DNA of 64,000 nucleotides. Origin: Octopus sinensis. Its lineage: Eukaryota. Under the pieces are notes generated by a model. That model searched no databases and was not told where the DNA came from. It saw only the letters and a program-made list of their open reading frames with translations. The stretch is from NCBI RefSeq assembly GCF_006345805.1, contig NC_043004.1, positions 65,906,001 through 65,970,000 on the forward strand, given 5' to 3'. Made by a program: the position numbers and the translations under genes. Shown in pieces: positions 1-62,279 of the stretch (position 1 is its first letter; every line of letters starts with the position of its first letter).

Positions 1-247
1 CCATGCAGACGTCTGTAGCTGTCGGTCAAGTAGTGTGGAGCGACTGACCTCCCTTGTTCGAAGGTTATATGGATACAGTTTGTGTATCAAATAGCTAACT
101 TAAGGCGATGGCCTCATGGAGCTAATAAGCGGTCAGCTTTATTCTTATTTTTATAAGAATGCCATATTAGTATGGCGATAACTATTATTTTCCGGGAACG
201 CTGCCGTGTTCTCTTTTAGAGAGACTTAGTAATTTTAATATTTCTAT

Positions 248-250
<3 letters not shown>
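1..250 (+). mobile_element. 3' part of the ~355-nt hammerhead-bearing non-coding element (same family as 33885-34490), cut by the window start
   Basis: Colinear similarity to 34358-34490 (+) and to the reverse complement of 33885-34120. Ends in ...taattttaatatttctattat followed by (TA)n, the same terminus as at 33885. Confidence 0.8.
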
Positions 251-7014: not shown

Positions 7015-8243
7015 CTGGGTCATCCCATAAATAATGAGGTTTGTTTCAATTGCATGAACTAAAAGTCCGAGGGTGACCGGATAAACTACCTACATCAACT
7101 TGCTTATAACTCAAGCAGTAAGTTTACCTTGCCCTTATTCCTAGTGCAAGTTTTGAAGAGTTTAGTTCGATTTTAATAATTATATTTTCGAAGCTATAAT
7201 GGAAGTAACAAAGGAGCATATTCAGCATATTTTGCTTTATGGGGTCAATGAAGGCAACAACACAACGGAAAGTGCTAGGAATGTTAGTGTAGTATATGGG
7301 GATCGGACGATAAGCGTGAACCAGTGTCAACGGTGGTTCCAGACTACAGCCAAGAAGACGATCCTCTTCCTGGAAGATCTGTAGAGCTGGACGAGGACGT
7401 CCTGCCAGCCCTGGTAGAAAAAATCCCATTGTAACTGTTGCGGAACGAGCAGGAAAGCTTGGACTTTGTCATTCAACCATTCATCGACATCTGCGTGCCA
7501 TCGGAAAAGTCAACAAATTGGGTCAATCAGTTCCTCAAAAATTTTCCGGGCCTAATTGCGCGCAGGGAGTCAATGTGTCCTATTCTTTGCTGCCACGCTT
7601 TACTAATGGACATTTTTTGGACCGAGACAAGAAATATGTTCTCTATAAACATGTCAAGCTCCAAAGATAGTGGATAAGAAAAGGAGAAACATCGGCACCC
7701 CAGGCTTCACACACGTAACTTGTTGTTATCTATTTCCTGGATTATGATGAGTTTAGTCCACTTTGAACCTTCAAACTCAAATCAAACAAAAACAAATGAG
7801 AACAACTGTGAGCCGTTTGAGCGGCTTACATCAGAGCTTGAGGGAAATTGAGCATCTTAGGTTTCAAGACGAAAGGTGTTCTTCCATCAGGATAATCCTC
7901 AGCCACATACAGCAAGGATGTCATTCCCAAGGCTGGAGCTGTTTGAATAGAAATCGATGCACCATCCACCGTATTCGCCGGGCATTACCCCATATGATTA
8001 TCATTTATTCCTCACTCATCATAATTATTTGGACGGAAAAAAATATGAATTCTGTAGACTAGTTGAGAACAGTAATGGGGGAGCATTTTTCGTCACGCAC
8101 AAATGAATTTTGGAAGACCTTGCAAATCTCACATATATATATAGAAGAGCATTGTAGAAAATGAACGAGAACATATTTTAGATTAAAACAAAAATTGTTT
8201 ATCTTAATTTTGAAAAATAAATGAAGTATAAAAGTACCGCATT
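7015..8243 (+). mobile_element. Decayed mariner transposon (transposase pseudogene)
   Basis: TA followed by TIR-like ctgggtcatcccataaataatg. Frames give MEVTKEHIQHILLY..CQRWF, FFHQDNPQPHTA and HPPYSPGITPYDYHLF, with many frameshifts. Right TIR truncated. Confidence 0.85.
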
Positions 8244-12397: not shown

Positions 12398-13082
12398 ACA
12401 TGATGGCTGCGCCCTCGTTATCGAGTATGGCCATTGCACGAAGTTTAACTGTTATTGGTGCTGTGACCGAATGTGACTTTCTCGCTCAGCTAAAGATCTA
12501 CAATGTCTTGTACAGAATTGGCAGCTAAAGCCTTTACTGGTAATAGCCGGCTGTAGTTGTAACTGGGCTTCATGTACCTTTGCATGTCGTTTAAGTCCTC
12601 CTGCCGAATTACTCTCTCTTCCACATGCCCGACAGATATGATTAGTATGGTGTGTAAAACCACCACCAGTGGCCAGGTTGTCACTCATTTGTCTCGTTTG
12701 ATGACTACGAAGATGACTCTTGAGTCCAGCTTTACTGAGGCAGGGTCTTGCACAGACACTGCATGTCAGCATCATAGGAAGACCCTTCCCATCAGTGATA
12801 CCCTTCCTGACATCAATCCTTACTTTCTCATGTGCAACTCGAGATTTCTCGAAAGCAGCTGTCCGCTCGTGCACAATCCTTCTCCACCTGCTACGATCCA
12901 CAGCAATGCCCTCCCATGTGACAGGAAAGATGCAAGCAAGTTCTTACACCTCTTTTTTGGTTTATGTGGAGGTCGTTCTCCTTTAGCTAGCTCCCATAAA
13001 AGTTTTGTTTTGGCATCCTTGAATCCTTCATCCTGGTCAGATGACCACTCCATCTGATCTTTTGCTTTAACACAAGAGCTTC
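12398..13082 (-). mobile_element. RTE-clade LINE 3' end (5'-truncated) with C-terminal C2H2 zinc fingers
   Basis: RWSGHLTRMKDSRMPKQ..L.KGER..DRSRWRRIVHE, typical of the RTE C-terminus, followed by three CxxC..HxxxH motifs. Homologous to 55137-55535. Confidence 0.85.
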
Positions 13083-13189
13083 TATATATACATACATACT
13101 TGCATACATACATACATAGATACATACATACATACACTCACACATACATACATACATACATACATACATACATACATACATACATACAT

Positions 13190-13623: not shown

Positions 13624-16209
13624 TATTGTTATATTTCGGAATGGTCATTTTGCCAGTTTAGCCAATAAAAACACACGCACTATATATTTGGTGTTATTTA
13701 TATTTTACAGTAACCTTAATCTTATTTCGGCCAGAGTTCTTTCGTCACACTCCTGTGACCGCATCAGTGGTCCTTTGTTTTCTTCTTTCTTATTTGTGTC
13801 TCTCCTTACTAACAGTCAGCCATTTTGTATTTCTATTGTATGTCTTCATTTGCGCATGCTTATATCTCTATGTGCGTCTATGTTTAGTTAGTGTGTGTGT
13901 TGGGGGGATGCCTGTAATATTTGTATCTTCTGTTTATATACGTTCGTGTAATTTGTTTTCGTTGTAGATTTTGTTCATTCTTAATTTGTTCATGTGTTTA
14001 GATCCACTTATTATTATCATTACTTATGCTTGTATGTATGTATGTATGTATCTATGTATAACAACAATACTAGTAATAAAAATAATAAATAAAAAAACAA
14101 AACTTGAAAAAAAACTTATGTAGTTATTTATTTCTATTTGTTTATTTATCTGTGTATTTTATTTATCATGTTTTCGGTTTTGTTTATATTGTAACCAGTT
14201 TATGGGGATCCTCTACCGTCATATGTTGTGGTGTGTGCTAGTGTTCCATTCCAGTTTCCTATTCAGGCTAGGTTTATTTTCTATTATGTGTGTAGCTTCT
14301 GTAATTTGTCTGATTGTTGCATCTGTTCTATGTGTGGAGAAGATTTTAACTTCTATGTTGTTGATTGATCTCCTATGTTCCTGTTCGGCGTGTTGGTACA
14401 GAATCGATCAGCTTTTACCTTCTTTAAGTTCTCTCCAATGTACATTTACCCGCTCTCCTATGCTTCGTGTAGTTTCCCTACGTATGTCATTGTCTTGTTA
14501 CTGCATCGTCCCTCTATACATCTTATACTATAGACTACATAGTGGTAAAGGCACCCCCCAAGAGAGTAATGTTGATATAGTAATAGAAACTAATACTATG
14601 GAAATCATCCAGCAAATAGCTAACTCCGTCCACCAGAGTATTAAGGTCACAATAGACTACCCCTCTAAACACCCCAACCATAGACTACCAGTACTAGACA
14701 CAGAACTCTGGCTAGAAACTGTGAATAATAAAACCCAAATCTTTCATTCGTACTATGCCAAACCTATGGCCTCAAAATACTTGTTCCACCGGATCTCAGC
14801 CATTGCGGACAGTGCCAAATTCAATATTTTGATGGCAGACCTCGTCAGAATAATGAGAAATGTGTCACGCATGTGCGAGCCTACAGAGTTAAAGAGACAC
14901 GTACAATATTTCATTCACCGCATGCAGCTCTCAGGTTACAGCCATAAAGAAAGGATCAGAGTATACAAAGGAGCCATGAAGAAATTTGATAATATATTAT
15001 GTAATGAGAGGAATGAGATTTGCCCCCCACTCTATAGGAACAAGTCATGGAACACTATAGAAAGGACAAAGAAGAAAATAGGGAAGGCCAACTCTTGGTA
15101 TGATAGCCATAAATACCAGAGTGTCATGTTCGTTGACACCATTCCTGGAGGTGAACTGGCGTACCGCTTTAGAATGACCCAAGACAAACTTACCCTTTTA
15201 GTAGAACCCCCTGTACGGATAGGTACTGTACTGTGTGTAGATTTAGCCCACAAACAAACTGTAAAGCCAGAAATCTAGTCTATAATATAAGATGTATAGA
15301 GGGACGATGCAGTAACAAGACAACGACATACGTAGGGAAACTGCACGAAGCATAGGAGAGCGGGTAAATGACATTGGAGAGAACTTAAGGAAGGTAAAAG
15401 TTGATCGATTCTGTACCAACACGCCGAACAGGAACACGGGGGATCAATCTACAACATAGAAGTTAAAATCTTGTCCACACATAGAACAGATGCAAAAATC
15501 AGACAAATTACAGAAGCTACACACATAATAGAAGATAAACCTAGCCTGAATAGGAAACTGGAATGGAACACTAGCACACACCACAACATATGACGGTAGA
15601 GGATCCCCATAAACTGGTTACAATATAAACAAAACCGAAAACATAATAAATAAAATACACAGATAAATAAACAAATAGAAATATATAACTATATAAGTTG
15701 TTTTTTTAATTTAAAAGATTTTTTTATTTATTATTATTATTATTACTAGTATTGTTGTTATACATACATACATACATACATACATACAAGCATAAGTAAT
15801 GATAATAATAAGTGGATCTAACACATGAACAAAATAAGAATAAACAAAATCTACAGCAAAAACAAATTACACGAACGTATATAAACAGAAGATACAAATA
15901 TTACAGGCATCCCCCCACACACACACTAACTAAACATAGACGCACACAGAGATATAAGCATGCGCAAATGAAGACATACAATAGAAATACAAAATGGCTG
16001 ACGGTTAGTAAGGAGAGACACAAATAAGAAAGAAGAAAGCAAAGGACCACTGATGCGGTCACAGGAGTGTGACGAAAGAACTCTGGCTGAAATAACATTA
16101 AGATTAATGTAAAAGATAAATAACACTGAAGCAAAATAACACCAAATATATAGTGCGTATATTTTTAATGGCTAAACTGGCAAAATGACCATTCCGAAAT
16201 ATAATAATA
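13624..16209 (+). mobile_element. 5'-truncated Penelope-like element with ~0.9 kb inverted duplication (arms 13624-14537 and 15276-16209)
   Basis: 14538-15200 encodes an RT thumb (LPVLDTELW..YYAKPMAS..RMQLSGYS). After a frameshift come PCTDRYCTVC..CKARNLVYNIRC..TYVGETARSIGER (Zn linker plus GIY-YIG). The arms are near-identical reverse complements. Confidence 0.9.
16048..16087 (+). ncRNA. Hammerhead-like motif in the PLE 3' region (mirror copy ~13730-13770 on the minus strand)
   Basis: cca-CTGATGCG-GTCACA ggag TGTGAC-GAAA-GAAC-TC-tgg. The core deviates from CUGANGA. Confidence 0.45.
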
Positions 16210-19698: not shown

Positions 19699-19743
<45 letters not shown>

Positions 19744-19947
19744 GTGAAATAGAAAGATGAATAATCTTGTAGTAGATTAATCAAAAGTTTAACCGATACC
19801 TAGTAGCAAAAATCACAGCAGTAAACAGCACGGTTGGAGGTACAACCATATGGTGTTGCAACCGTTCGTTGGTGCGGAAATTGAAATTAAAATATTATTG
19901 GTGAATTGAAGAAATGGAGCTGAACGCAGATTGAACAGAAATCGTTT

Positions 19948-20041
19948 TATTTCATTCTACACGTGTTTCGAAAGGCACAATTTACCAAAATCCGATTGAA
20001 TAATGGGACCATATTGTGTCTTTCTCTTCAGGAAGAAAATA
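19948..20041 (-). ncRNA. Type I hammerhead ribozyme in PLE terminal repeat
   Basis: tattttcttc-CTGAAGA-gaaagacacaat...attgtgcctttc-GAAA-CACGT-GTA-gaatgaaata. Helix I pairs at 9 of 10 positions; palindromic ACACGTGT helix III. Confidence 0.8.
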
Positions 20042-21112
20042 GGAAATCCGTTGGAAAAAACAAAAACAGAACAGAGGCGGAGCAAAAATATAGTGACAGG
20101 AACGCAGTTCTAATTTCAGAAACTAATCCTAGCAGAATAAGATTCACGTCGGCGAAATCCAAGATCAAAAACGCCGTCTACCAATGCAAGGTTTACACGG
20201 ACTCAGATGTTTTCACTTATGTAGGGGCCTCATCCTCAAGATTGTCTTTGCGGGTCTCCAACCATTACGCAACTTTTCGGGACATGAACAAGCGCCAGAC
20301 CACGGGACTCAGTAAGCTAATATGGCGACTGAAGGATACGAACTTAAGCTACAGGCTGGAATGGCCAATTTTGTCGGTGGCCCTCCCATTTGATAGGGGC
20401 AGAAGGCAGTGCAACCTTTGTGTCTCCGAACTCTTCCATATTTTGTTTGCCAGAGGCCGGATGGTAAACGGGCTCTTATAGTCGGCTTTTCGATGCCCCC
20501 ATTGGCGGCGTTACACTTATCTGGCCTTTAAATAGCGTTTATAAATAATACCGGCACCCATAGCCCTTGGTAACAAATTCTGAAATAGCCTTTAAGATAT
20601 CTACGATTAACCACTGCAAGGGGAATTACTCCTGTAAGATAAACGGGGCTTGGTTTTTTCACAACGGGGGGTTTCCTTGACAAGGCAGGCTTAGATGAAC
20701 ACACACACACATAAAACATAATATATATTTTTTTTCTGCCACCCAACGGTTCTCACTGCAGTAGCCACTGACAGCCGAACGTTCAAACGCACACACGTAC
20801 ACAAAAAATGTTTTCTACCCCTAAGCCAACACACACATATATAGAACAGTATACACACACACACTAAGTAGATTTTTTCTCGCCCCTTATAAAACATCCA
20901 ATATTCCTTAAATAGTCAGAACTTTATTCTCGGTCACAAAGAACATCTATACACCCTCACCCACATGATTGACCGATGCCTGACCCGTTAAATTCTTCAG
21001 CCACCGGTTCTCAACATACACTGATAAACAGTTCGCCATGGGCTCTTAGGAGCCTAGTTCGATTTGTTTTTGCTCCGCCTCTGTTCTGTTTTTGTTTTTC
21101 CAACGGATTTCC

Positions 21113-21205
21113 TATTTTCTTCCTGAAGAGAAAGACACAATATGGTCCCATTATTCAATCGGATTTTGGTAAATTGTGCCTTCGAAACACTTGTAGAATG
21201 AAATA
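21113..21205 (+). ncRNA. Second copy of the same hammerhead (palindrome mutated to ACACTTGT)
   Basis: CTGAAGA at 21123-21129 and GAAACACTTGTA at 21184-21195. Confidence 0.7.
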
Positions 21206-21253
21206 AAACGATTTCTGTTCAATCTGCGTTCAGCTCCATTTCTTCAATTCACC

Positions 21254-21320
<67 letters not shown>

Positions 21321-26839: not shown

Positions 26840-26864
26840 ATATAGTTAATCCAAGCAAGAAAGC

Positions 26865-27050
26865 ACAAAAAAAACACAACAACGCGAGGACGTGGAACAA
26901 ATATAGTATTATTGGACGCTCAGGAAAGAAGGAAAGAAGGAGGGATTAACGTTTCGAGCGGAGCTCTTCGTCGGAAACTTAGGAGAAGGAAAGATGCAGA
27001 GAAGGGAAGACAGAGGAAAAAAAATCGCCAACGGTACACACGCGGTCACA
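26865..27050 (-). mobile_element. PLE-type 3' terminal fragment with hammerhead-like motif (copy of 330-540)
   Basis: Reverse complement of 335-535; ends at a (TA)n tract. Confidence 0.65.
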
Positions 27051-33853: not shown

Positions 33854-33885
<32 letters not shown>

Positions 33886-34112
33886 ATAGAAATATTAAAA
33901 TTATTAAGTCTCTTTAAAAGAGATTACGACAGCGTTTCTGGAAATTAATGTTATCGCCATACTAATATGGCATTCTTAAAAATAAGAATAAAGCTGTCGC
34001 TGATTAGCTTCATGAAGCCATCGCCTCAAGCTAGCTACTTGACACACAAACTGCGTCCTTTATTAAACCTTCGAACAGGGGTGGTCAGCCGCTTCAACCT
34101 GCTAGTCCGACA

Positions 34113-34155
34113 GCTACAGACATGTTTCGGGGTTGTTGCCCCTTCTCAATGCAGC
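34113..34155 (-). ncRNA. Type I minimal hammerhead, U3:A8 core variant
   Basis: gctgca-TTGAGAA-GGGG caacaa CCCC-GAAA-CAT-GTC-tgtagc. Helix I extends through ggtct(a/g)ac/gtcggact. Confidence 0.75.
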
Positions 34156-34323
34156 GTAGTTAGACCTGCAGGTGACGCTACTGACCGTCTCTGTTCGAAG
34201 ATTTTAAAGAGACTTAGTAATTTTAATATTTCTATTATTGAAAACAAGTGGATGTATTCCACCGTAACTAGGAAAAATCTTCGAACAGAGACGGTCAGTA
34301 GCGTCACCTGCAGGTCTGACTAC

Positions 34324-34366
34324 GCTGCATTGAGAAGGGGCAACAACCCTGAAACATGTCTGTAGC
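34324..34366 (+). ncRNA. Second copy of the U3:A8 hammerhead
   Basis: gctgca-TTGAGAA-GGGG caacaa CCCT-GAAA-CATGTC-tgtagc; predicted cut after 34360. Confidence 0.75.
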
Positions 34367-34484
34367 TGTCGGACTAGCAGTTTGAATCGGCTGACCTCCC
34401 CTGTTCGAAGGTTTAATAACGGACGCAGTTTGTGTGTCAAGTAGCTAGCTTGAGCGATGGCTTCATGGAGCTAATCAGCGACAG

Positions 34485-34547
<63 letters not shown>

Positions 34548-34569
34548 TCATACATATATATAAATAAAT

Positions 34570-36490
34570 AACTACATCTATAGACTCCTTCCTCGACAGC
34601 ATTCCTCGACAGCATTCATCACTCCACTTTTACCACCTCCATTCACTACAAACACAGACTCACACTCATACCTAAACTTATCTTCGTCCCACTCCAAATA
34701 CACCAGGCTTTAAATCCCCTATTCCCAATTCCTCCGTCTACGTAGGCTCTGTAGTGACGACTATGACTTTGAGACTCAGTCTCAACTCATGGCTCGCCAC
34801 TTCATCCTACGTGGATACCCCCTCACCACTATCCACACTGCCTTTGCCAGAGCACGTTCCGTAGACCATGCATCTGCTCTCTTTCCCCCGAACCAGCCCT
34901 GCAGTCTCCCGCCTCCCTTTTCCCCTCACTTACCACCCCACCACCCTACCTCTCCCATGCACCATTCTTCGAGCTTTGTGGCATCTCCAGTCCGACCCGT
35001 CAACTTCACACCTCTTCCCTAACCGACCCCTCCTCTCCTTCAAACGAACCCATAACCTACGAGACCTCTTGGTCCACAGCTTCTTCCCCAACCCTACCTC
35101 CCAACGTGGCTCATTCCCCTGCTCCCGCCCACACTGCCGCACTTGCCCTTACCTCTCCAACACCACCCTCCTTACTGGCACCCATCATCGACCCTATCGC
35201 ATCATCGACTCCGTCACCTGCACCTCCAGCAATATCATCTATTGCATCACCTGCTCTCTCTGCCTTTCCCTGTACATCGGACAAACGGGAGGCCGCTTGG
35301 TTGACCGGTTTGCGGAACACCTCCGAGACATCCGCCTCGCCAATGACTCTCCAGTCTCACGCCATTTCCGCTCCAACGGTCACTCCTTGCAACACCTGTG
35401 TGTGTTCGGATTGTCCTTGCACAGAAGCCATCTGGATACACGCTTGTGCCGTGAACAGGGATTAATCTTCTCTCTTCGCTCTTTTACGCCATTTGGGCTC
35501 AACTCTCCCCTCTTTTCATCTAGCCTACTTATCTTCACTCCTACATATTTTCACCGCTACTCTCTTTCCCTTCTTTCTCTTCTTCCCCCTTCTTCCCTGT
35601 TCTCCCTCTTCCCTTTCTCTCTTTCTCTCTGCTCCCTCACTCCGCATCTCTCCCTTCACCTCTCCCACCACCTCCCTCCACCTTCCTTCATCCTCCTCTA
35701 TCTCCTTCCCACCCCTCCCCCTCTCACCCACTCCTCTCATCTCTCTCTTCCTCCTCTTTCCTCCTCCACCCTCTCACCACTTCCTCTCATCTCCCTCCTC
35801 CTCCTCTTTCCTCATCGCCCTCTCTCCCCTCCTATCCCTCTCTCCCCTCCTATCCCCCCTCCTCACCTCCCACTCTACTCCACCCTTCCCCCACTCTATC
35901 CAACCCCTTCCCCCACTCTACCAAAACCCCGAGCTGAATCCCCACCCCCACCTGTGCTTTCCCCACTCTCGCATTCCCCACCTCCCCACAACATCACAAC
36001 ACACCCCACAGCACGCCGGCCACACACCCATCCCCACATCTTTACCCCCACACAAACATACACATATCACATCACAACACAATACCCACACACCCGTCCC
36101 CACATCTCCACACCCACACATACATACACCCACACGTCCAGACCACCAGCCCTCTTTCGCACGCACTTACATACTCTCTTATACACACACGCACCTTTCT
36201 GTAGGGGGCATCTTCGTATTGGAAGTCACTTGTCCCTGTTATCTCCCCTACTGTCCCTCTCGCGTCTGACCACTGTCTGAAGTTAGGATGCCATGATAGA
36301 TCGTTGCTCCTACACGCATTTTTCTCTCTCCTTGTTCCTCTCCTTGTTTTTTTTCTCTGTATCCTTCTGTCGATGAGCGTAGGCTCGAAACGTAAAAGAC
36401 TTTTCTATTCCTGAACGTTATACTAATACATGTGTTTGTTTGTACTCCACCTGCCTTCGTCTTTTGTTTATGTTCGTAAACTTTCCCGTT
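34570..36490 (+). mobile_element. 5'-truncated Penelope-like (Neptune-like) element: RT thumb, Zn linker, GIY-YIG, C/T-rich 3' region
   Basis: TDSHSYL..IPYSQFLRLRRLCSD..RGYP; NLRDLLVHS..CSRPHCRTC..TCTSSNIIYCITCSLCLSLYIGQTGGRLVDRFAEH, with frameshifts. The 3' end has CTGTCGAT-GAGC gtag GCTC-GAAACGTA (36367-36394), then (TA)n. Confidence 0.92.
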
Positions 36491-41877: not shown

Positions 41878-41879
<2 letters not shown>

Positions 41880-42080
41880 TGTGAAATAGAAAGATGAATA
41901 AACTTGTAGCAGATTAATCAAAAGTTTAACCGATACCTTGGTAGCAAAAATCACAGCAGAAGACAGCACGGTTGGAGGTACAACCATATGGTGTTGCAAC
42001 CGTGCGTTGGTGCGGATAATTGAATTTTAATATTATTATTATTAATATTATTAATATTATATGTTTGTATCTTCACCAAT
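41878..42080 (-). mobile_element. Terminal-repeat fragment of the 19741-21257 PLE family
   Basis: Nearly identical to 19741-19890; bounded by (TA)n. Confidence 0.8.
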
Positions 42081-42090
42081 AATATATATA

Positions 42091-42129
<39 letters not shown>

Positions 42130-42413
42130 CGTAATAATGAAGGGTGAAATTAATTAATTTGGAAAAATTATCAATTACACCAAGTAGTCTTCGGCATGTA
42201 AAAGCCTCATTCGAGGAAAATTTAAGTAATACTAAGCAATAAGGGTTTAGCAACGAGTTGCCTTACCACATACCGAATTTAGAAATAGCAGTCAAAGGGT
42301 TATAGCTATTTCTTCTACTAAAAAGGGAGATCTCAGTAAAAACAGCATTTGGAAGGCACAAACAGGTAAGAGAGAATGAATTGACTGCAATCTATCATAC
42401 ATTTTTTTAGTTA

Positions 42414-42527
42414 TCCACGGACGTACGTTTCGAAATCAAGTTTTAAGGAAAACATACGAATTAAATATTAAATATTAAATAATAAATAATTCTATCTTAC
42501 CGAAACTTCTTTTCTCTTCAGCGTAAA
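42414..42527 (-). ncRNA. Type I hammerhead ribozyme, unit 1 (repeats every ~599 bp through unit 7)
   Basis: Plus strand tccacg-GACGTACG-TTTC-gaaatcaagttt...aaacttcttttc-TCTTCAG-cgta is the reverse complement of the motif at 47084-47195. Confidence 0.85.
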
Positions 42528-45500
42528 TACTATAATCATAAATGATTATATATTGAATTTTGAGATACCAGAAGGCACCAACTCCACTCAGTATCAGAGC
42601 GAGCTAGAACCCGCAACTGGTATCACCGAATTCATTTGTGAATGAAACGATTGTGTCAACAGCCCCTCCCACCCGCGTGTAGCCAAAACAAATGATGCTG
42701 TGGTCATCTACTGAGATAAAATATGGTTATCCGTATAATGAAGGGTGAAATTAATTAATTTGGAAAAATTATCATTACACCAATAGTCTTCGGCATTAAA
42801 AGCCTCATTCGAGGAAAATTTAAGTAATACTAAGCAATAAGGGTTTAGCAACGAGTTGCCTTACCACATACCGAATTTAGAAATAGCAGTCAAAGGTTAT
42901 AGCTATTTCTTCTACTAAAAAGGGAGATCTCAGTAAAAACAGCATTTGGAAGGCACAAACAGGTAAGAGAGAATGAATTGACTGCAATCTATCATACATT
43001 TTTTTAGTTATCCACGGACGTACGTTTCGAAATCAAGTTTTAAGGAAGCATACGATTTAAATATTAAATATAAATAATAAATAATTCTATCTTACCGAAA
43101 CTTCTTTTCTCTTCAGCGTAGAATACTATAATCATAAATGATTATATATTGAATTTTGAGATACCAGAAGGCACCAACTCCACTGAGTATCAGAGCGAGC
43201 TAGAACCCGCAACTGGTATCACCGAATTCAATTTGTGAATGAAACGATTGTGTCAACAGCCCCTTCCCACCCGCGTGTAGCCAAAACAAGATGCTGTGGT
43301 CATCTACTGAGATAAAATATGGTTATCCGTAATAATGAAGGGTGAAATTAATTAATTTGCAAAAATTATCAATTACACCAAGTAGCCTTCGGCATGTAAA
43401 AGCCTCATTCGAGGGAAATTTAAGTAATACTAAGCAATAAGGGTTTAGCAACGAGTTGCCTTACCACATACCGAATTTAGAAATAGCAGTCAAAGGGTTA
43501 TAGCTATTTCTTCTACTAAAAAGGGAGATCTCAGTAAAAACAGCATTTGGAAGGCACAAACAGGTAAGAGAGAATGAATTGACTGCAATCTATCATACAT
43601 TTTTTTAGTTATCCACGGACGTACGTTTCGAAATCAAGTTTTAAGGAAAGCATACGAATTAAATATTAAATATAAAATATAATAATTCTATCTTACCGAA
43701 ACTTCTTTTCTCTTCAGCGTAGAATACTATAATCATAAATGATTATATATTGAATTTTGAGATACCAGAAGGCACCAACTCCACTCAGTATCAGAGCGAG
43801 CTAGAACCCGCAACTGGTATCACCGAATTCAATTTGTGAATGAAACGATTGTGTCAACAGCCCCTTCCCACCCGCGTGTAGCCAAAACAAGATGCTGTGG
43901 TCATCTACTGAGATAAAATATGGTTATCCGTAATAATGAAGGGTGAAATTAATTAATTTGGAAAAATTATCAATTACACCAAGTAGTCTTCGGCATGTAA
44001 AAGCCTCATTCGAGGAAAATTTAAGTAATACTAAGCAATAAGGGTTTAGCAACGAGTTGCCTTACCACATACCGAATTTAAATAGCAGTCAAAAGGTTAT
44101 AGCTATTTCTTCTACTAAAAAGGGAGATCTCAGTAAAAACAGCATTTGAAGGCACAAACAGGTAAGAGAGAATGAATTGACTGCAATCTATCATACATTT
44201 TTTTAGTTATCCACGGACGTACGTTTCGAAATCAATTTTTAAGGAAAGCATACGAATTAAATATTAAATATTAAATAATAAATAATTCTATCTTACCGAA
44301 ACTTCTTTTCTCTTCAGCGTAGAATAGTATAATCATAAATGATTATATATTGAATTTTGAGATACCAGAAGGCACCAACTCCACTCAGTATCAGAGCGAG
44401 CTAGAACCCGCAACTGGTATCACCGAATTCAATTTGTGAATGAAACGATTGTGTCAACAGCCCCTTCCCACCCGCGTGTAGCCAAAACAGATGCTGTGGT
44501 CATCTACTGAGATAAAATATGGTTATCCGTAATAATGAAGGGTGAAATTAATTAATTTGGAAAAATTATCAATTACACCAAGTAGTCTTCGGCATGTAAA
44601 CCTCATTCGAGGAAAATTTAAGTAATACTAAGCAATAAGGGTTAGCAACGAGTTGCCTTACCACATACCGAATTTAGAAATAGCAGTCAAGGGTTATAGC
44701 TATTTCTTCTACTAAAAAGGGAGATCTCAGTAAAAAGCATTTGGAAGGCACAAACAGGTAAGAGAATGAATTGACTGCAATCTATCATACATTTTTTTAG
44801 TTATCCACGGACGTACGTTTCGAAATCAAGTTTTAAGGAAAGCATACGAATTAAATATTAAATATTAAATAATAAAAATTCTATCTTACCGAAACTTCTT
44901 TTCTCTTCAGCGTAGAATACTATAATCATAAATGATTATATATTGAATTTTGAGATACCAGAAGGCACCAACTCCACTCATAATCACCGAGCGACTAGAA
45001 CCCGCAACTGGTATCACCGAATTCATTTGTGAATGAAACGATTGTGTCAACAGCCCCTTCCCACCCGCGTGTAGCCAAAACAAGATGCTGTGGTCATCTA
45101 CTGAGATAAAATATGGTTATCCGTATAATGAAGGGTGAAATTAATTAATTTGGAAAAATATCAATTACACCAAGTAGTCTTCGGCATGTAAAAGCCTCAT
45201 TCGAGGAAAATTTAAGTAATACTAAGCAATAAGGGTTTAGCAACGAGTTGCCTTACCACATACCGAATTTAGAAATAGCAGTCAAAGGGTTATAGCTATT
45301 TCTTCTACTAAAAAGGGAGATCTCAGTAAAAACAGCATTTGGAAGGCACAAACAGGTAAGAGAGAATGAATTGACTGCAATCTATCATACATTTTTTTAG
45401 TTATCCACGGACGTACGTTTTCAAATCAAGTTTTAAGGAAAGCATACGATTAAATATTAAATATTAAATAATAAATAATTCTATCTTACCGAAACTTCTT

Positions 45501-47083
45501 TTCTCTTCAGCGTAGAATACTATAATCATAAATGATTATATATTGAATTTTGAGATACCAGAAGGCACCAACTCCACTCAGTATCAGAGCGAGCTAGAAC
45601 CCGCAACTGGTATCACCGAATTCAATTTGTGAATGAAACGATTGTGTCAACAGCCCCTTCCCACCCGCGTGTAGCCAAAACAAGATGCTGTGGTCATCTA
45701 CTGAGATAAAATATGGTTATCCGTAATAATGAAGGGTGAAATTAATTAATTTGGAAAAAATATCAATTACACCAAGTAGTCTTCGGCATGTAAAAGCCTC
45801 ATTCGAGGAAAATTTAAGTATAATACTAAGCAATAAGGGTTTAGCAACGAGTTGCCTTACCACATACCGAATTTAGAAATAGCAGTCAAAGGGTTATAGC
45901 TATTTCTTCTACTAAAAAGGGAGATCTCAGTAAAAAGCATTTGGAAGGCAAAACAGGTAAGAGAGAATGAATTGACTGCAATCTATCATACATTTTTTTA
46001 GTTATCCACGGACGTACGTTTCGAAATCAAGTTTTAAGGAGCATACGAATTAAATATTAAATATTAAATAATAATAATTCTATCTTACCGAAACTTCTTT
46101 TCTCTTCAGCGTAGAATACTATAATCATAAATGATTATATATTGAATTTTGAGATACCAGAAGGCAACCAACTCCACTCAGTATCAGAGCGAGCTAGAAC
46201 CCGCAACTGGTATCACCGAATTCAATTTGTGAATGAAACGATTGTGTCAACAGTCCCTTCCCACCCGCGTGTAGCCAAAACAAGATGCTGTGGTCATCTA
46301 CTGAGATAAAATATGGTTATCCGTAATAACGCTACACGCGGGTGGGAAGGGGCTGTTGACACAATCGTTTCATTCACAAATTGAATTCGGTGATACCAGT
46401 TGCGGGTTCTAGCTCGCTCTGATACTGAGTGGAGTTGGTGCCTTCTGGTATCTCAAAATTCAATATATAATCATTTATGATTATAGTATTCTACGCTGAA
46501 GAGAAAAGAAGTTTCGGTAAGATAGATTATTTATTATTTAATATTTAATATTTAATTCGTATGCTTTCCTTAAAACTTGATTTGGAAACGTACGTCCGTG
46601 GATAACAAAAAAATGTATGATATATTGCAGTCAATTCATTCTCTCTTACCTGTTTGTGCCTTCCAAATGCTGTTTTTACTGAGATCTCCCTTTTTAGTAG
46701 AAGAAATAGCTATAACCCTTTGACTGCTATTTCTAAATTCGGTATGTGGTAAGGCAACTCGTTGCTAAACCTTATTGCTTAGTATTACTTAAATTTTCTC
46801 GAATGAGGCTTTTACATGCCGAAGACTACTTGGTGTAATTGATAATTTTTCAAATTAATTAATTTCACCCTCATTATTACGGAAACCATATTTTATTTCA
46901 GTAGATGACCACAGCATCTTGTTTTGGCTACACGCGGGTGGGAAGGGGCTGTTGACACAATCGTTTCATTCACAAATTGAATTCGGTGATACCAGTTGCG
47001 GGTTCTAGCTCGCTCTGATACTGAGTGGAGTTGGTGCCTTCTGGTATCTCAAAATTCAATATAATCATTTATGATTATAGTAT

Positions 47084-47195
47084 TCTACGCTGAAGAGAAA
47101 AGAAGTTTCGGTAAGATAGAATTATTTATTATTAATATTTAATATTTAATCGTATGCTTTCCTTAAAACTTGATTTCGAAACGTACGTCCGTGGA
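47084..47195 (+). ncRNA. Type I hammerhead ribozyme in an inverted unit (another at 46490-46602)
   Basis: tctacg-CTGAAGA-gaaa ag aagttt ...aaactt ga tttc-GAAA-CGTAC-GTC-cgtgga. 6-bp helix I, long helix II, palindromic ACGTACGT helix III; predicted cut after C47189. Confidence 0.88.
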
Positions 47196-47375
47196 TAACT
47201 AAAAAAATGTATGATAGATTGCAGTCAATTCATTCTCTCTTACCTGTTTGTGCCTTCCAAATGCTGTTTTTACTGAGATCTCCCTTTTTAGTAGAAGAAA
47301 TAGCTATAACCCTTTGACTGCTATTTCTAAATTCGGTATGTGGTAAGGCAACTCGTTGCTAACCCCTTATGCTTA

Positions 47376-47423
<48 letters not shown>

Positions 47424-54170: not shown

Positions 54171-55136
54171 CTGTCGGTTCGGCGCTAAAGACGAACAATA
54201 TGGCTGAAATGATTAGGCTGACACCATTGTAAAGTTTTAATTGAAATCCGTCGGAGGACGTACCGTGTAGAACATGCTACAATGAATCCCAGCGTGTTTA
54301 ATGCATTTTTCCCTTCCATTTTTTCTTTTTATATTTTCGAAAAATATATTGTTGGTTTCGATATTATAATTAGAACATTGTTTTTAATTGAATCAGTGTT
54401 GTTGTTACTGTTGTTGCTCTTGCTGATAATGACATTTTTTTTTTAGTATTATTAGTTATAGTTTCTGGTTGCTAATCGTGTTGGTGAAGTTGTGTGTTAT
54501 GCTTGTTATCGGTGTCATCCCATTCAATTAATTTTCACAGACATAAAATTAGAATATATACTCACGGATGCAAACACACCTCATCCGCATTTCCATACAG
54601 ATATATATACAAGTAAGCACATAAATTCAAAACAAGTTGGGAGGAAAAGTAGTACAGGAATACCAAAGGTAGAGTTGTATACACTTTATTAATACCGAAA
54701 AAAATCTTCACGAACAGTTACTCAGTTACACGTTGCCGTTCATCAGACACTTGTGATAATACTCCCACATTGTTTACTGGACAGTATGATTCTAAATAAT
54801 CACAATTGTCCAACTTACGGTAACGTTAAACTCCGAGTAGCCATGTCTGAAGAGTTTGTTCTGCTATGATGAACAGTATATGAGTAAATACGGATATATT
54901 TGTTCAGCTTTAGTAAGCAGTGTATATATGTTTACCCCTCTCTCTCTCTCCCTCTCCCTCTCTCTCTCTCTATCTATCTATTTATCTATCTATCTCTCTA
55001 TCTATCTATCTATCTCTTTATATAATAGACGATAGACAACTATACATCATTCTCATTCTTTCTAACACCTTGAAATCTATACCAACTTATTTACAAGCAA
55101 ACTATATTAAAAGAAAATTTTAACCGAAGAACTCTA

Positions 55137-56598
55137 GAGTTCAGCTTTACTGAGGCAGGGTCTTGCACACACACTGAATATCAGCATCATAGGAAAACTC
55201 TTACCATCTGGAAGTACAACAGCAATGCTCTTCCTAACATTCCTCCTTACTTTCTCATGCGCGATTCGAGATTTCTCAAAAGTACCTGTTCCTTCGCGTA
55301 TAATCCTTCTCCACCTGCTACGATCAATAGCTATGCCCTCCCATATGCCAGGAGAGATGCAAGCATCCCTTAAGGAAGCATTCAGCAAGTCCTTATATTT
55401 CTTTTTTAGTTTATGTAGAAGTCGTTCTCCTTTAGCTAACTCCCCATAAAAGATTTGTTTTGGCATCCTTGAATCCTTCATCCTGACCAGATGACTACTC
55501 CATCCGAGCCTTTGCTTTAATACAAGAGCTTCTATACTTTCACACCGAGAGCTTCCTAATATTTCAAGATCACTGATGTGGCCCTCCCACTAAATGCCAT
55601 AGATCTGTCTGAGACACATCTGATGGAAACGTTCCAGTTGTTTAAGGTGGAATCGATATGTGACCCACATCTCGCAGGCATAAAAAAGAGAAGAGAGCAC
55701 ACACGCCCTGTACGCCTTTATCTTTGTCTTCTTGCATATGTCTCACCGACTCCAGAGGCGCCTTTCTAGCCTTCCGAAAGCATCACTTGATTTCCTAATC
55801 CTGTATGGAATTTCATCATCCAAATTGCTATATCTATTAACAGTGCTTCTCAGGTAGACAAACTGATCAACTACATAGATATTTGGTTCACTATACTGCT
55901 TACATGAGCAGGTTGGTACATGTCAACTGTTTTCATGAGACTGACTGTCAATCTTAAGGCAGCGCAAGTATCAGAGAATGCATTCAAAATGTGTTGCATA
56001 TCAATCTTTGTGTGTGCTACTAGCTCACAATCATCAGCATACAAAATGTCTCTTATGATAGAGGTAAATACCATTGTTTTTACAGCAAAGCGCCTGATAT
56101 AAAATATACTGCCAGAGATTCGATAATGGATATAAATACCATATGTGCAGTTTATGAATACAATACAGAACACCATCGCGAAATATATGGAAAATAGGGT
56201 CGGTGCCAGAATATCCCCCTGTTTCACTTCATTTTGTATTGAAATGGGCTCCGACATCTTCCCTCTAATATTCACCTAACCCTTCATGTCTTCATGAAAA
56301 TACCTAACCAAAGCAAGGAAGTTTTCAGGACACCCACGTTTCTGGAGGACTTTCCACACTGCATTTCTATTAACAGTATCAAAGGCTTTTGTCAGATCGA
56401 CAAAAACCTGATATAAATCCAGACCCTGTTCCACACACTTCTCCTGAAGCTATCTAGCTGAAGAGATCACATCGGCAGTGCCGCGTCCCACACGAAAGCC
56501 AGATTAACTCTCTGGAAGAACACAATCTGCAACGTGTTTCAACAGACGATCCAGAAGTACCCTGCATAAGACCTTTCCTACGACAGAAAGCAATGATA
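55137..56598 (-). pseudogene. RTE-clade LINE ORF fragment (reverse transcriptase)
   Basis: LYQVFVDLTKAFDTVNR..VKQGDILAPTLFSIYF..DILYADDCEL..RMKDSRMPKQIFYGEL..DRSRWRR, with stops and frameshifts. Confidence 0.92.
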
Positions 56599-61000: not shown

Positions 61001-62279
61001 ATATATATATATATATACGCCCTCTTTCCCTGACAGGGCATTGGTTTGGTGTAGTAGAAGCAGCTACCCAAATTGCCGCAGATGACACTGAACCCCAAAG
61101 CACATGCTTGTAAAGCGACCATCTTAATTTCAGAGCCATGCTGAAAGTATTATAAAATTTAACCTATTAAATTGAGTAAGATTGTTTGGTCGATGAAGAT
61201 ATGCTTTGTGTTAACCCCAACTACGAGGAAATGCAGAAACGATAACAATGGTAACCAATCAATAAAACCATGAACAAAAACTATGTGGAAACAAATCCAA
61301 GCCCCCAAACCGGCCACAAGAGCAGCAAAAGCATCTCACTGTGTCTCTGTCAGTGGTAAAACTTTGGTGTAAACGCATGTAGTAATGAATTGTAAATTTG
61401 CCTAGAAACGGTAACCACGTCTGAAGAGACAATATTGATATTTTTAATCGCACTTCGAATTCGAATTGAAATTAATCATAATGAGTTCTGATAATGTATT
61501 TTGAACAATGTCAAACTGCATCGCTCTTATTGACTTTACTCAGCTGTCCCTAGCTTTCTGTTTCGGGATGGGTTGTACATACTGAAAAGGCTCTCAGCGC
61601 TGCTACGCCTTATAATAATCCACAGTAAATAATCTTGCTGTTAATTCAGTTGACTAAAGTTTTTTGTCTTGCCCTTAGAAATCGGAATTAAAAACAACAA
61701 TAATGTTATCTATAAGAAAAACAATTACAAAAAACCTCTTTAGCAACAGTAGTAGAGAAAAGAAGAAAAAGGAAGCACAACAGCAGTTTGAAGGAAAGAA
61801 TTGATTATCAAACATAAAAACCAACTGTAACTCTAAGGCATGTGTTGTCTCTCTAATAGGCTGTTTCCAGGGGAGCAATACAAAGGCGTATGAGAAAATC
61901 ATAATGATCACATATGGGAGACGTTGTGGATATGAAAGTATGGACAGGAGGCCAATAAAAGATTGAATAGATGCTTGAATGAAAGGAGTTAAAAATAGAA
62001 GAACAAATAAAGATAGGTTTTAAAATGAAGGGGACAAACAGGGAGACTAGTGGAAAGAGAGACACAAGAAAAAGAAAAGGAAAGGAAGAGGGAAGAAGAA
62101 ATTAAGATGTCCATGTGAAGGACAAGCGATTGGATGTAAAGAAAAGAGAAAGAAACAAAAGGGTATTGTCGATGAGAGACAAAGAAAATAATATGTGTAA
62201 CGTGAAAGAAGGGTGCATGAGGGGAAAGAAAAAAAGCGGAAGGTGGAGATGGAGGCTGAGATTAGAAGCAAAGAGAATA

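Follow-up and report, generated by a model that had tools for sequence, protein, structure and literature searches.

What kind of element carries a hammerhead whose core reads UUGAGAA in place of CUGANGA, and what enzyme put it where it is? The question is raised by a repeat of Octopus sinensis that lies, in both orientations, between 33883 and 34490 of the stretch of DNA analysed here (64,000 nt of contig NC_043004.1, called the window throughout). This eukaryotic DNA is rich in AT and dense in microsatellites, and several remnants of retroelements lie in it; the repeat itself occurs at three places in the 64 kb, both arms of the locus being counted.

With residues in Hertel numbering, the core U3-U4-G5-A6-G7-A8-A9 is present in both arms (34330-34336 on the plus strand, 34149-34143 on the minus strand), as the initial annotation had it. 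Every position other than U3:A8 is canonical for a type I core (N3-U4-G5-A6-N7-N8-A9, G12-A13-A14, A15.1-U16.1, H17) in both of them, and 3:8 is a Watson-Crick pair, as such a core requires. The annotation was also right to call U3:A8 the compensatory form of the C3-G8 pair (PMC3088659), and right in its account of helix I (6 bp in both arms, GCUGCA/UGUAGC with one G-U, continued beyond a 3x1 internal loop, UAC against U1.7, by a distal helix of 8 bp where about 8 had been announced) and of the palindrome ACAUGU, which occurs as GAA-ACAUGU-C17 on the 3' side of the core in both arms and is enclosed by a helix III of one to two pairs. Its helix II needs a small correction: the 4-bp helix (GGGG-CAACAA-CCCY) does carry the loop CAACAA, but the GGGG/CCCC pairing is that of the minus arm only, the plus arm having GGGG/CCCU. 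The whole has the geometry of the "canonical" metazoan type I hammerhead (described in PMC4209133), that is, a 6-bp helix I, a 4-bp helix II and a helix III of 1-2 bp with a palindromic loop. The bases for the predicted contacts between loop I and loop II are all there (the unpaired U1.7, whose role in such contacts is treated in PMC11875169, the terminal A of loop II and the internal-loop UAC), and these bases (UAC, those of loop II and U1.7) match the consensus of the Rfam model Hammerhead_HH9. Where the annotation went too far was in treating the swap as a surprise: natural U3-A8 covariation has been published, with ribozymes of this kind active in vitro (Perreault et al. 2011, PMC3088659), and so have some 1,300 U3-A8 hits in Schistosoma mansoni to which a search from a Penelope-like element, or PLE, led (Cervera and de la Pena 2014, PMC4209133).

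Followed along the plus strand, the locus opens with (TA)n and continues with an inverted tail and an inverted body, after which come tail, 35-nt linker, body nt 1-217 and a second (TA)n (Table 1). A small hairpin lies where body and tail adjoin, and the central tail begins in its loop; the direct arm ends at 34490, 105 nt before the end of the unit. Since the arms differ at only 7 positions (210 of 217 aligned are identical) plus one indel, and have in common letters that are absent from most public contigs, they are probably one insertion and not two witnesses. The unit is present in both orientations, as had been claimed, insofar as each arm has its hammerhead, but the pair looks like a single insertion and supplies neither independent evidence nor a dimer partner. 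Similarly, the join that had been placed at 34205-34274, from the unit's 3' end back to its start, does exist, but it consists of a copy of the tail and then the linker. The third, diverged copy said to end at position 250 was found as well; it starts at the GUC site, and its core lies outside the window or has been lost. At its start (window positions 1-20) there is a 10-bp palindrome centred on 10/11, GUC included, which could represent either a further inversion junction or a helix III that has mutated.

Table 1. Features of the locus and of related sequences, in window coordinates.
Feature	Position	Strand	Remarks
Inverted arm, body and tail of the unit, 323 nt	33883..34205	-	reads outward into (TA)n
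37-nt 3' tail of inverted arm, (TA)n at its end	33883..33919	-	36/37 identical to 34202-34238
Type I hammerhead of inverted arm	34104..34166	-	U3=34149, A8=34144, C17=34119; helix II GGGG/CCCC
Inversion junction, TTTT	34202..34205	.	4 bases common to the starts of the inverted arm and the central tail
Second copy of 37-nt tail, 5' end of direct arm	34202..34238	+	by sequence comparison
Linker, 35 nt, from tail to body start, part of the monomer	34239..34273	+	contig bridging; small hairpin in the fold
Direct arm, body nt 1-217, ending in an AT-rich stretch at (TA)n	34274..34490	+	
Long imperfect rod tipped by the hammerhead	34275..34414	+	z -6.84, 0/200 shuffles as stable
Type I hammerhead of direct arm	34313..34375	+	U3=34330, N7=34334, A8=34335, G12=34351
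Other parts of direct-arm hammerhead	helix II 34337-34350; palindrome 34354-34359; U1.7=34367	+	
Predicted cut, direct arm	between 34360 and 34361	+	after GUC
Left (TA)n, apparent target	33860..33884	.	
Right (TA)n	34488..34544	.	
Third, diverged copy, GUC site to tail end (tail 214-250), then (TA)n	11..250	+	85% identity
5'-truncated Penelope-like element, CX4CXXC and GIY-YIG coding remnant	34546..36470	+	frame 34865-36280

The unit of the family can be read from public sequencing runs, 24 of which are listed and 20 of which contain part of the stretch, none of them half or more. Contigs from 4 of the 24 runs (3 organisms, no run being recorded as RNA) were compared at 80% likeness, with the ends 33860-33896 and 34476-34520 left out as repeats, so that the right-hand break lies outside the comparison. 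One of the four, run X5, may be RNA, but this is a guess and carries no weight as to expression. The repeat is abundant in these organisms: 733, 1104, 733 and 32 contigs matched, figures that for the three large runs are distinct contigs in each and not a copy number. In each of the four runs, the loose ends that precede 34202-34203, among the 24 of 292 listed, are similar to the 3' end of the body in sense orientation (24, 19, 11+15 and 2 contigs), and in run X6 eight contigs pass from the tail end into (TA)n. Among the 32 of 2,630 pieces listed, the passage from linker to body is bridged in three of the four runs by at least 5 pieces with 31 letters on each side; by the same rule none bridges tail and linker, the best consisting of the linker flanked by 19 letters from the tail and 37 from the body. 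From the loose ends and the linker-body bridges follows a family order body-tail-linker-body, with a monomer of 358 nt (35 + 323, that is, linker, body and 37-nt tail; GC 41%), and the public contigs support the monomer border seen at the locus. This supports, as far as contig sequence can, a head-to-tail monomer of about 358 nt; the circularly permuted, head-to-tail unit of the initial annotation is thereby borne out, and its "~355 nt" was right as to a repeat of retrozyme size and is to be read as 358. That border is the only one seen, and neither a multi-unit tandem array nor two hammerheads on the same strand appeared at the locus or in the contigs listed. Modelled as a circle, the monomer folds with z -7.1 (0/60 shuffles as stable), and its antisense folds well too (z -6.2).

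Non-coding, within 150-450 bp, below 50% GC and with one type I hammerhead, the unit has the size and composition of a non-LTR retrozyme. The sole frame of at least 130 codons over the locus has no Pfam match, and a strict pattern for Pol III A and B boxes found none, which gives no support for a tRNA-type SINE. A 27-mer of the tail had no occurrence in the viral or the prokaryote collections, and a distant blastn search of phage records found no match. A metagenome scan with a 20-mer returned two loci, which we set aside as chance (only 21-22 bases matching and no further homology), and the match at 7151-7207, a weak one (E 0.001), is noise from AT-rich sequence. The nearest relatives are the metazoan non-LTR retrozymes of Cervera and de la Pena 2020, PMC7229834 (the 350-390-bp repeats of Mytilus galloprovincialis and axolotl Rtz_331 / HHR_Amex1), with which the unit has in common a non-coding monomer of about 350 nt with GC below 50%, one type I hammerhead and a self-paired circular fold. 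With HHR_Amex1, whose cleavage is poor in the monomer and good in the dimer, it also has in common a weak palindromic helix III. It differs from these retrozymes, for which circles and expression have been shown, in its U3:A8 core and in its solo or inverted insertions in (TA)n with a 37-nt tail, theirs being tandem arrays with long target site duplications. No description of the repeat family was found in the literature searched (mostly open-access, with supplements partly covered); the available text of the Octopus vulgaris repeat annotation (PMC13282606) has no occurrence of hammerhead, ribozyme or retrozyme, and further related papers are PMC6765202 and PMC7151607.

As to the enzyme, the anatomy of the insertion is of Penelope type, with a head-to-head inversion, a 37-nt tail and (TA)n at both ends. 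The two 3' ends that are complete in the window each finish with the tail, in (TA)n, and the tail is found again at the inversion. There the 35-nt linker is missing from the inverted arm, the direct arm begins at the opposite edge of the tail, and 4 bases are common to the two sides of the junction. An inverted copy truncated at its 5' end, a tail of 30-40 bp and a bias towards (TA)n are frequent in PLE insertions (PMC8557442); among their junctions the head-to-head kind is commonest, and an example from Adineta has an inverted repeat shorter by 37 bp than its direct repeat (PMC3846280). An anole PLE in vitro cuts AT-rich DNA and extends both strands, with two RNA start sites that bound the tail (PMC11167929). 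What the initial annotation missed is that the 37-nt 3' end, present twice, acts like a Penelope "tail" and that the inversion has the head-to-head form usual in Penelope. The likeness to endonuclease-bearing PLE insertions (PMC3846280, PMC8557442, PMC11167929) thus comprises the head-to-head inverted 5' copy shorter than the direct repeat, the tail of 30-40 nt and the AT-rich or (TA)n target, whereas the unit has no ORF and its direct arm begins with the tail and has its 3' end cut short.

We think, and consider this reading fairly probable from the sequence features taken together, that the unit is a non-autonomous element of the non-LTR retrozyme type with a monomer of about 358 nt, and that a PLE supplies both the reverse transcriptase and the GIY-YIG endonuclease for its copying. 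Tandem copies elsewhere would give a multimeric RNA, in which adjoining hammerheads would pair with one another by means of the ACAUGU palindrome and cleave 3' of GUC, U3:A8 taking the place of C3:G8, and the monomers would possibly be closed into circles by a host ligase. The PLE enzyme would nick (TA)n DNA and start to copy the RNA at one tail edge or the other. As the direct arm runs across the border between monomers, the template would have been multimeric or circular. At this locus cDNA would have been primed from both target ends, one running from the tail end through the body and the other from inside the body back over the linker and the tail, and the two would have been joined on their 4 shared bases. 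Priming from both target ends would be analogous to L1 twin priming, and we regard a twin-priming-like event here as possible, with rather less than even confidence. The short right arm could also be due to a later deletion beside the neighbouring PLE insertion, and not to a priming site. It speaks against a PLE-copied retrozyme that the 64-kb window yielded no autonomous PLE with sequence in common with the unit, and that the contigs listed contain neither a tandem array nor a full bridge from tail to linker.

Could the unit instead be an autonomous PLE's pseudo-LTR (pLTR), so that the locus would be an inverted insertion of that PLE, much shortened at the 5' end and without any independent life as a retrozyme? 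The tail, the inversion and the (TA)n target are indeed those of autonomous PLEs, animal U3-A8 was first seen in PLE hammerheads (PMC4209133), and the Xenopus retrozymes are homologous to pLTRs (bioRxiv 10.64898/2026.07.22.740005). We nevertheless consider this unlikely. The start of the body returns within 35 nt after the tail, at the locus as in the public contigs, and no ORF is found there, the one sizeable frame over the locus having, as said, no Pfam match. Moreover, although the unit and the S. mansoni hammerheads (PMC4209133) have the 3/8 covariation in common, theirs are minimal (a short helix I, a long helix II, a helix III without loop), whereas that of the unit is canonical, with its 6-bp helix I, 4-bp helix II and loop-contact bases, and sits in a short non-coding monomer. 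An autonomous PLE, with RT and GIY-YIG ORF between pLTRs, was also considered and set aside, the adjacent GIY-YIG remnant being a separate element.

That adjacent remnant (34546-36470), labelled Neptune-like here on its CX4CXXC motif and PMC8557442, has a decayed minimal hammerhead of its own near 36368-36395, a C/T-rich 3' region and related ends at about 30424 and 60889. Its GIY-YIG match in Pfam has E 0.035; 57 homologues were obtained among 181 candidates, and the three that were scanned all have GIY-YIG, one of them also RT. It has no DNA similarity to the 358-nt unit, and is therefore context and not a proven partner.

If the preferred reading of a PLE-copied retrozyme is kept, is U3:A8 the state of its family? 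The variant table for the contigs has 70 rows, 40 of them listed, with a lowest listed best share of 0.67 that we take as the apparent cut-off; among these 40 of 70 rows there is none for position 3 or position 8 in either arm. At N7 the share of depth with U is 69, 78, 73 and 33% in the four runs, and at position 10.1 the share with A is 68, 73, 68 and 33%, the helix II pair 10.1-11.1 occurring as G-C, G-U and A-U. One S. mansoni row in the supplement of PMC4209133 has the core UUGAUAA with A after it, apparently the commonest state in the family of the unit. Position 1.6 reads A in 59-75%, which breaks the sixth helix I pair unless its partner has changed too and may shorten helix I in other copies; in the rod, covariation is mixed, and several of the variants as listed break pairs. 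Two divergent contigs bear on the matter directly, record 29 of run X6 (10 other letters, at 75% of local depth) and record 19 of run X5 (12 other letters, at 92%, with G12 changed). Both retain U3, A8 and N7=U, since at so dominant a depth any change of U3 or A8 would have given listed rows, and there are none. To judge from the contigs, U3:A8 is thus no local accident, being found in two organisms and in divergent copies, and it is probably the majority state of the family.

A referee might object that the family is mainly canonical C3:G8, and U3:A8 the mark of a subfamily that includes the insertion at 33883-34490. With 40 of 70 rows listed, a C3:G8 class of up to two thirds could be compatible with the data; at positions 3 and 8 the per-run tallies are compatible with T>C and A>G, and the arms probably stem from a single event. 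We find this improbable all the same, because a wholly G8 state of the commonest class, which has N7=U and reaches 78%, would give a listed row at the adjacent position 8, and because the two divergent contigs with N7=U, from two organisms, keep both U3 and A8.

Much less probable still is a MITE at 33883-34238, made up of the minus arm with both 37-nt repeats, that would have terminal inverted repeats, would have entered at TA and would carry the hammerhead as a passenger. It is true that 33883-33919 and 34202-34238 are inverted repeats (36/37) that can be read as TA-flanked, and that they pair in the fold of 33883-34238. In the public contigs, however, it is the sense 3' body that precedes the repeat at 34202, and not the inverted body; the inversion point 34201/34202 is crossed by none of the 32 listed pieces, two of which end there, and the direct arm starts without such a repeat. 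Judged by the loose ends and bridging pieces, terminal inverted repeats are not the normal ends of the family.

There remains chance, and here the hammerhead observation is confirmed and goes beyond it. A descriptor with a palindromic helix III, run over the whole window, gives the two arms as its only hits with zero mismatches, and it gives no hit in 60 shuffled windows; a looser hammerhead scan adds one unconvincing hit, at 61421. The motif-bearing rod (about 140-147 nt) folds with z -6.8 and -7.6 in the two arms (0/200 shuffles as stable), the 76-nt motif alone weakly (z -2.0 and -1.2). Rfam has no hit at gathering score in the whole window and 18 weak hits, no hammerhead among them, in 801 nt; a search with 111 nt gives an alignment to the full length of Hammerhead_HH9, with 17.7 bits and E 0.028, well short of the gathering score of 52. 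The miRNA hits of Rfam were rejected as products of the inversion and of (TA)n. A chance look-alike within a structured repeat, for which the lack of an Rfam match at gathering score and the weak z of the motif alone might speak, is extremely improbable when the other core bases, three helices, palindrome and contact bases are all in place, the shuffled windows are empty and the most frequent core variant falls on N7, the free position.

A sound motif does not make an active copy. The locus has only one sense hammerhead per strand, and its read-through RNA is predicted to be one hairpin of about 215 bp (-437.5 kcal/mol) in which the hammerhead is paired with its own complement; since a single long hairpin would bury the ribozyme in this way, the copy at 33883-34490 is probably inert for cleavage. 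In this fold model the locus is more likely a source of dsRNA than of cleavage, and the active RNA would come from tandem copies elsewhere.

Several other elements of the window deserve mention in their own right. At 42125-47390 there is an array of a ~600-bp unit, with about 7 direct and about 2 inverted copies, a junction at 46329/46331 and (TA)n at both ends; its architecture is PLE-like, neither of two scans found a hammerhead in it, and it could be another non-autonomous PLE derivative. A dispersed repeat at 335-538 and 26841-27047, in opposite orientations and 93% identical, has in both copies a minimal hammerhead-like motif with the core CCGACGA (U4 to C). Nested inverted repeats at 13624-16209 surround a 384-codon frame (14124-15278) without Pfam match, which we take to resemble the C-terminal region of a PLE reverse transcriptase. 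A 185-codon frame (19924-20481) within 19741-21261 looks GIY-YIG-like by eye and has no Pfam match; this element has inverted repeats (19892-20088 / 21067-21261) and (TA)n ends, and its first 160 bp occur again at 41878-42037. Finally, 12452-13083 and 55125-56275 are related LINE remnants (79% identical over 411 bp, one with an RVT_1 match), presumably RTE-like.

What do these findings mean? They create no new class. The rare natural U3-A8 swap, the mollusc retrozymes of 350-390 nt and the proposal of a Penelope origin are already published; what is added here, on the sequences compared, is the likely prevalence of U3:A8 in a canonical retrozyme hammerhead and a PLE footprint at the insertion. 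In the literature searched (mostly open-access) we found neither U3:A8 in, or as the usual state of, a canonical retrozyme hammerhead, nor the Penelope tail and inversion anatomy on a retrozyme. As regards the enzyme that mobilises animal retrozymes, the available text of a 2020 review (PMC7761336) describes them without any motif that points to a partner. A 2026 preprint (bioRxiv 10.64898/2026.07.22.740005), in which one of the nine predicted Xenopus retrozyme dimers tested cleaved, argues for PLEs, and the proposed retrozyme-PLE relationship is common to that work and ours. Its evidence, as far as the available text goes, is co-occurrence and pLTR homology, mostly in vertebrates and with no mollusc among the groups named, and the tail and inversion anatomy and the variant cores are not used there. 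More boldly, and only tentatively, one may picture an abundant retrozyme family, spread over related animal species, with an active, tertiary-stabilised U3:A8 hammerhead, whose insertions record a PLE enzyme copying multimeric or circular RNA with priming from both ends at sites defined by the tail.

A retrozyme insertion with a PLE tail and a head-to-head inversion is a mechanistic footprint that hints at the copying enzyme, and it predicts start sites of reverse transcription that the in vitro assay already available for PLEs could test. Should U3:A8 be the norm of the family, retrozyme surveys based on CUGANGA would undercount whole families, and the family would be a natural test of how far the canonical hammerhead tolerates the 3:8 swap.
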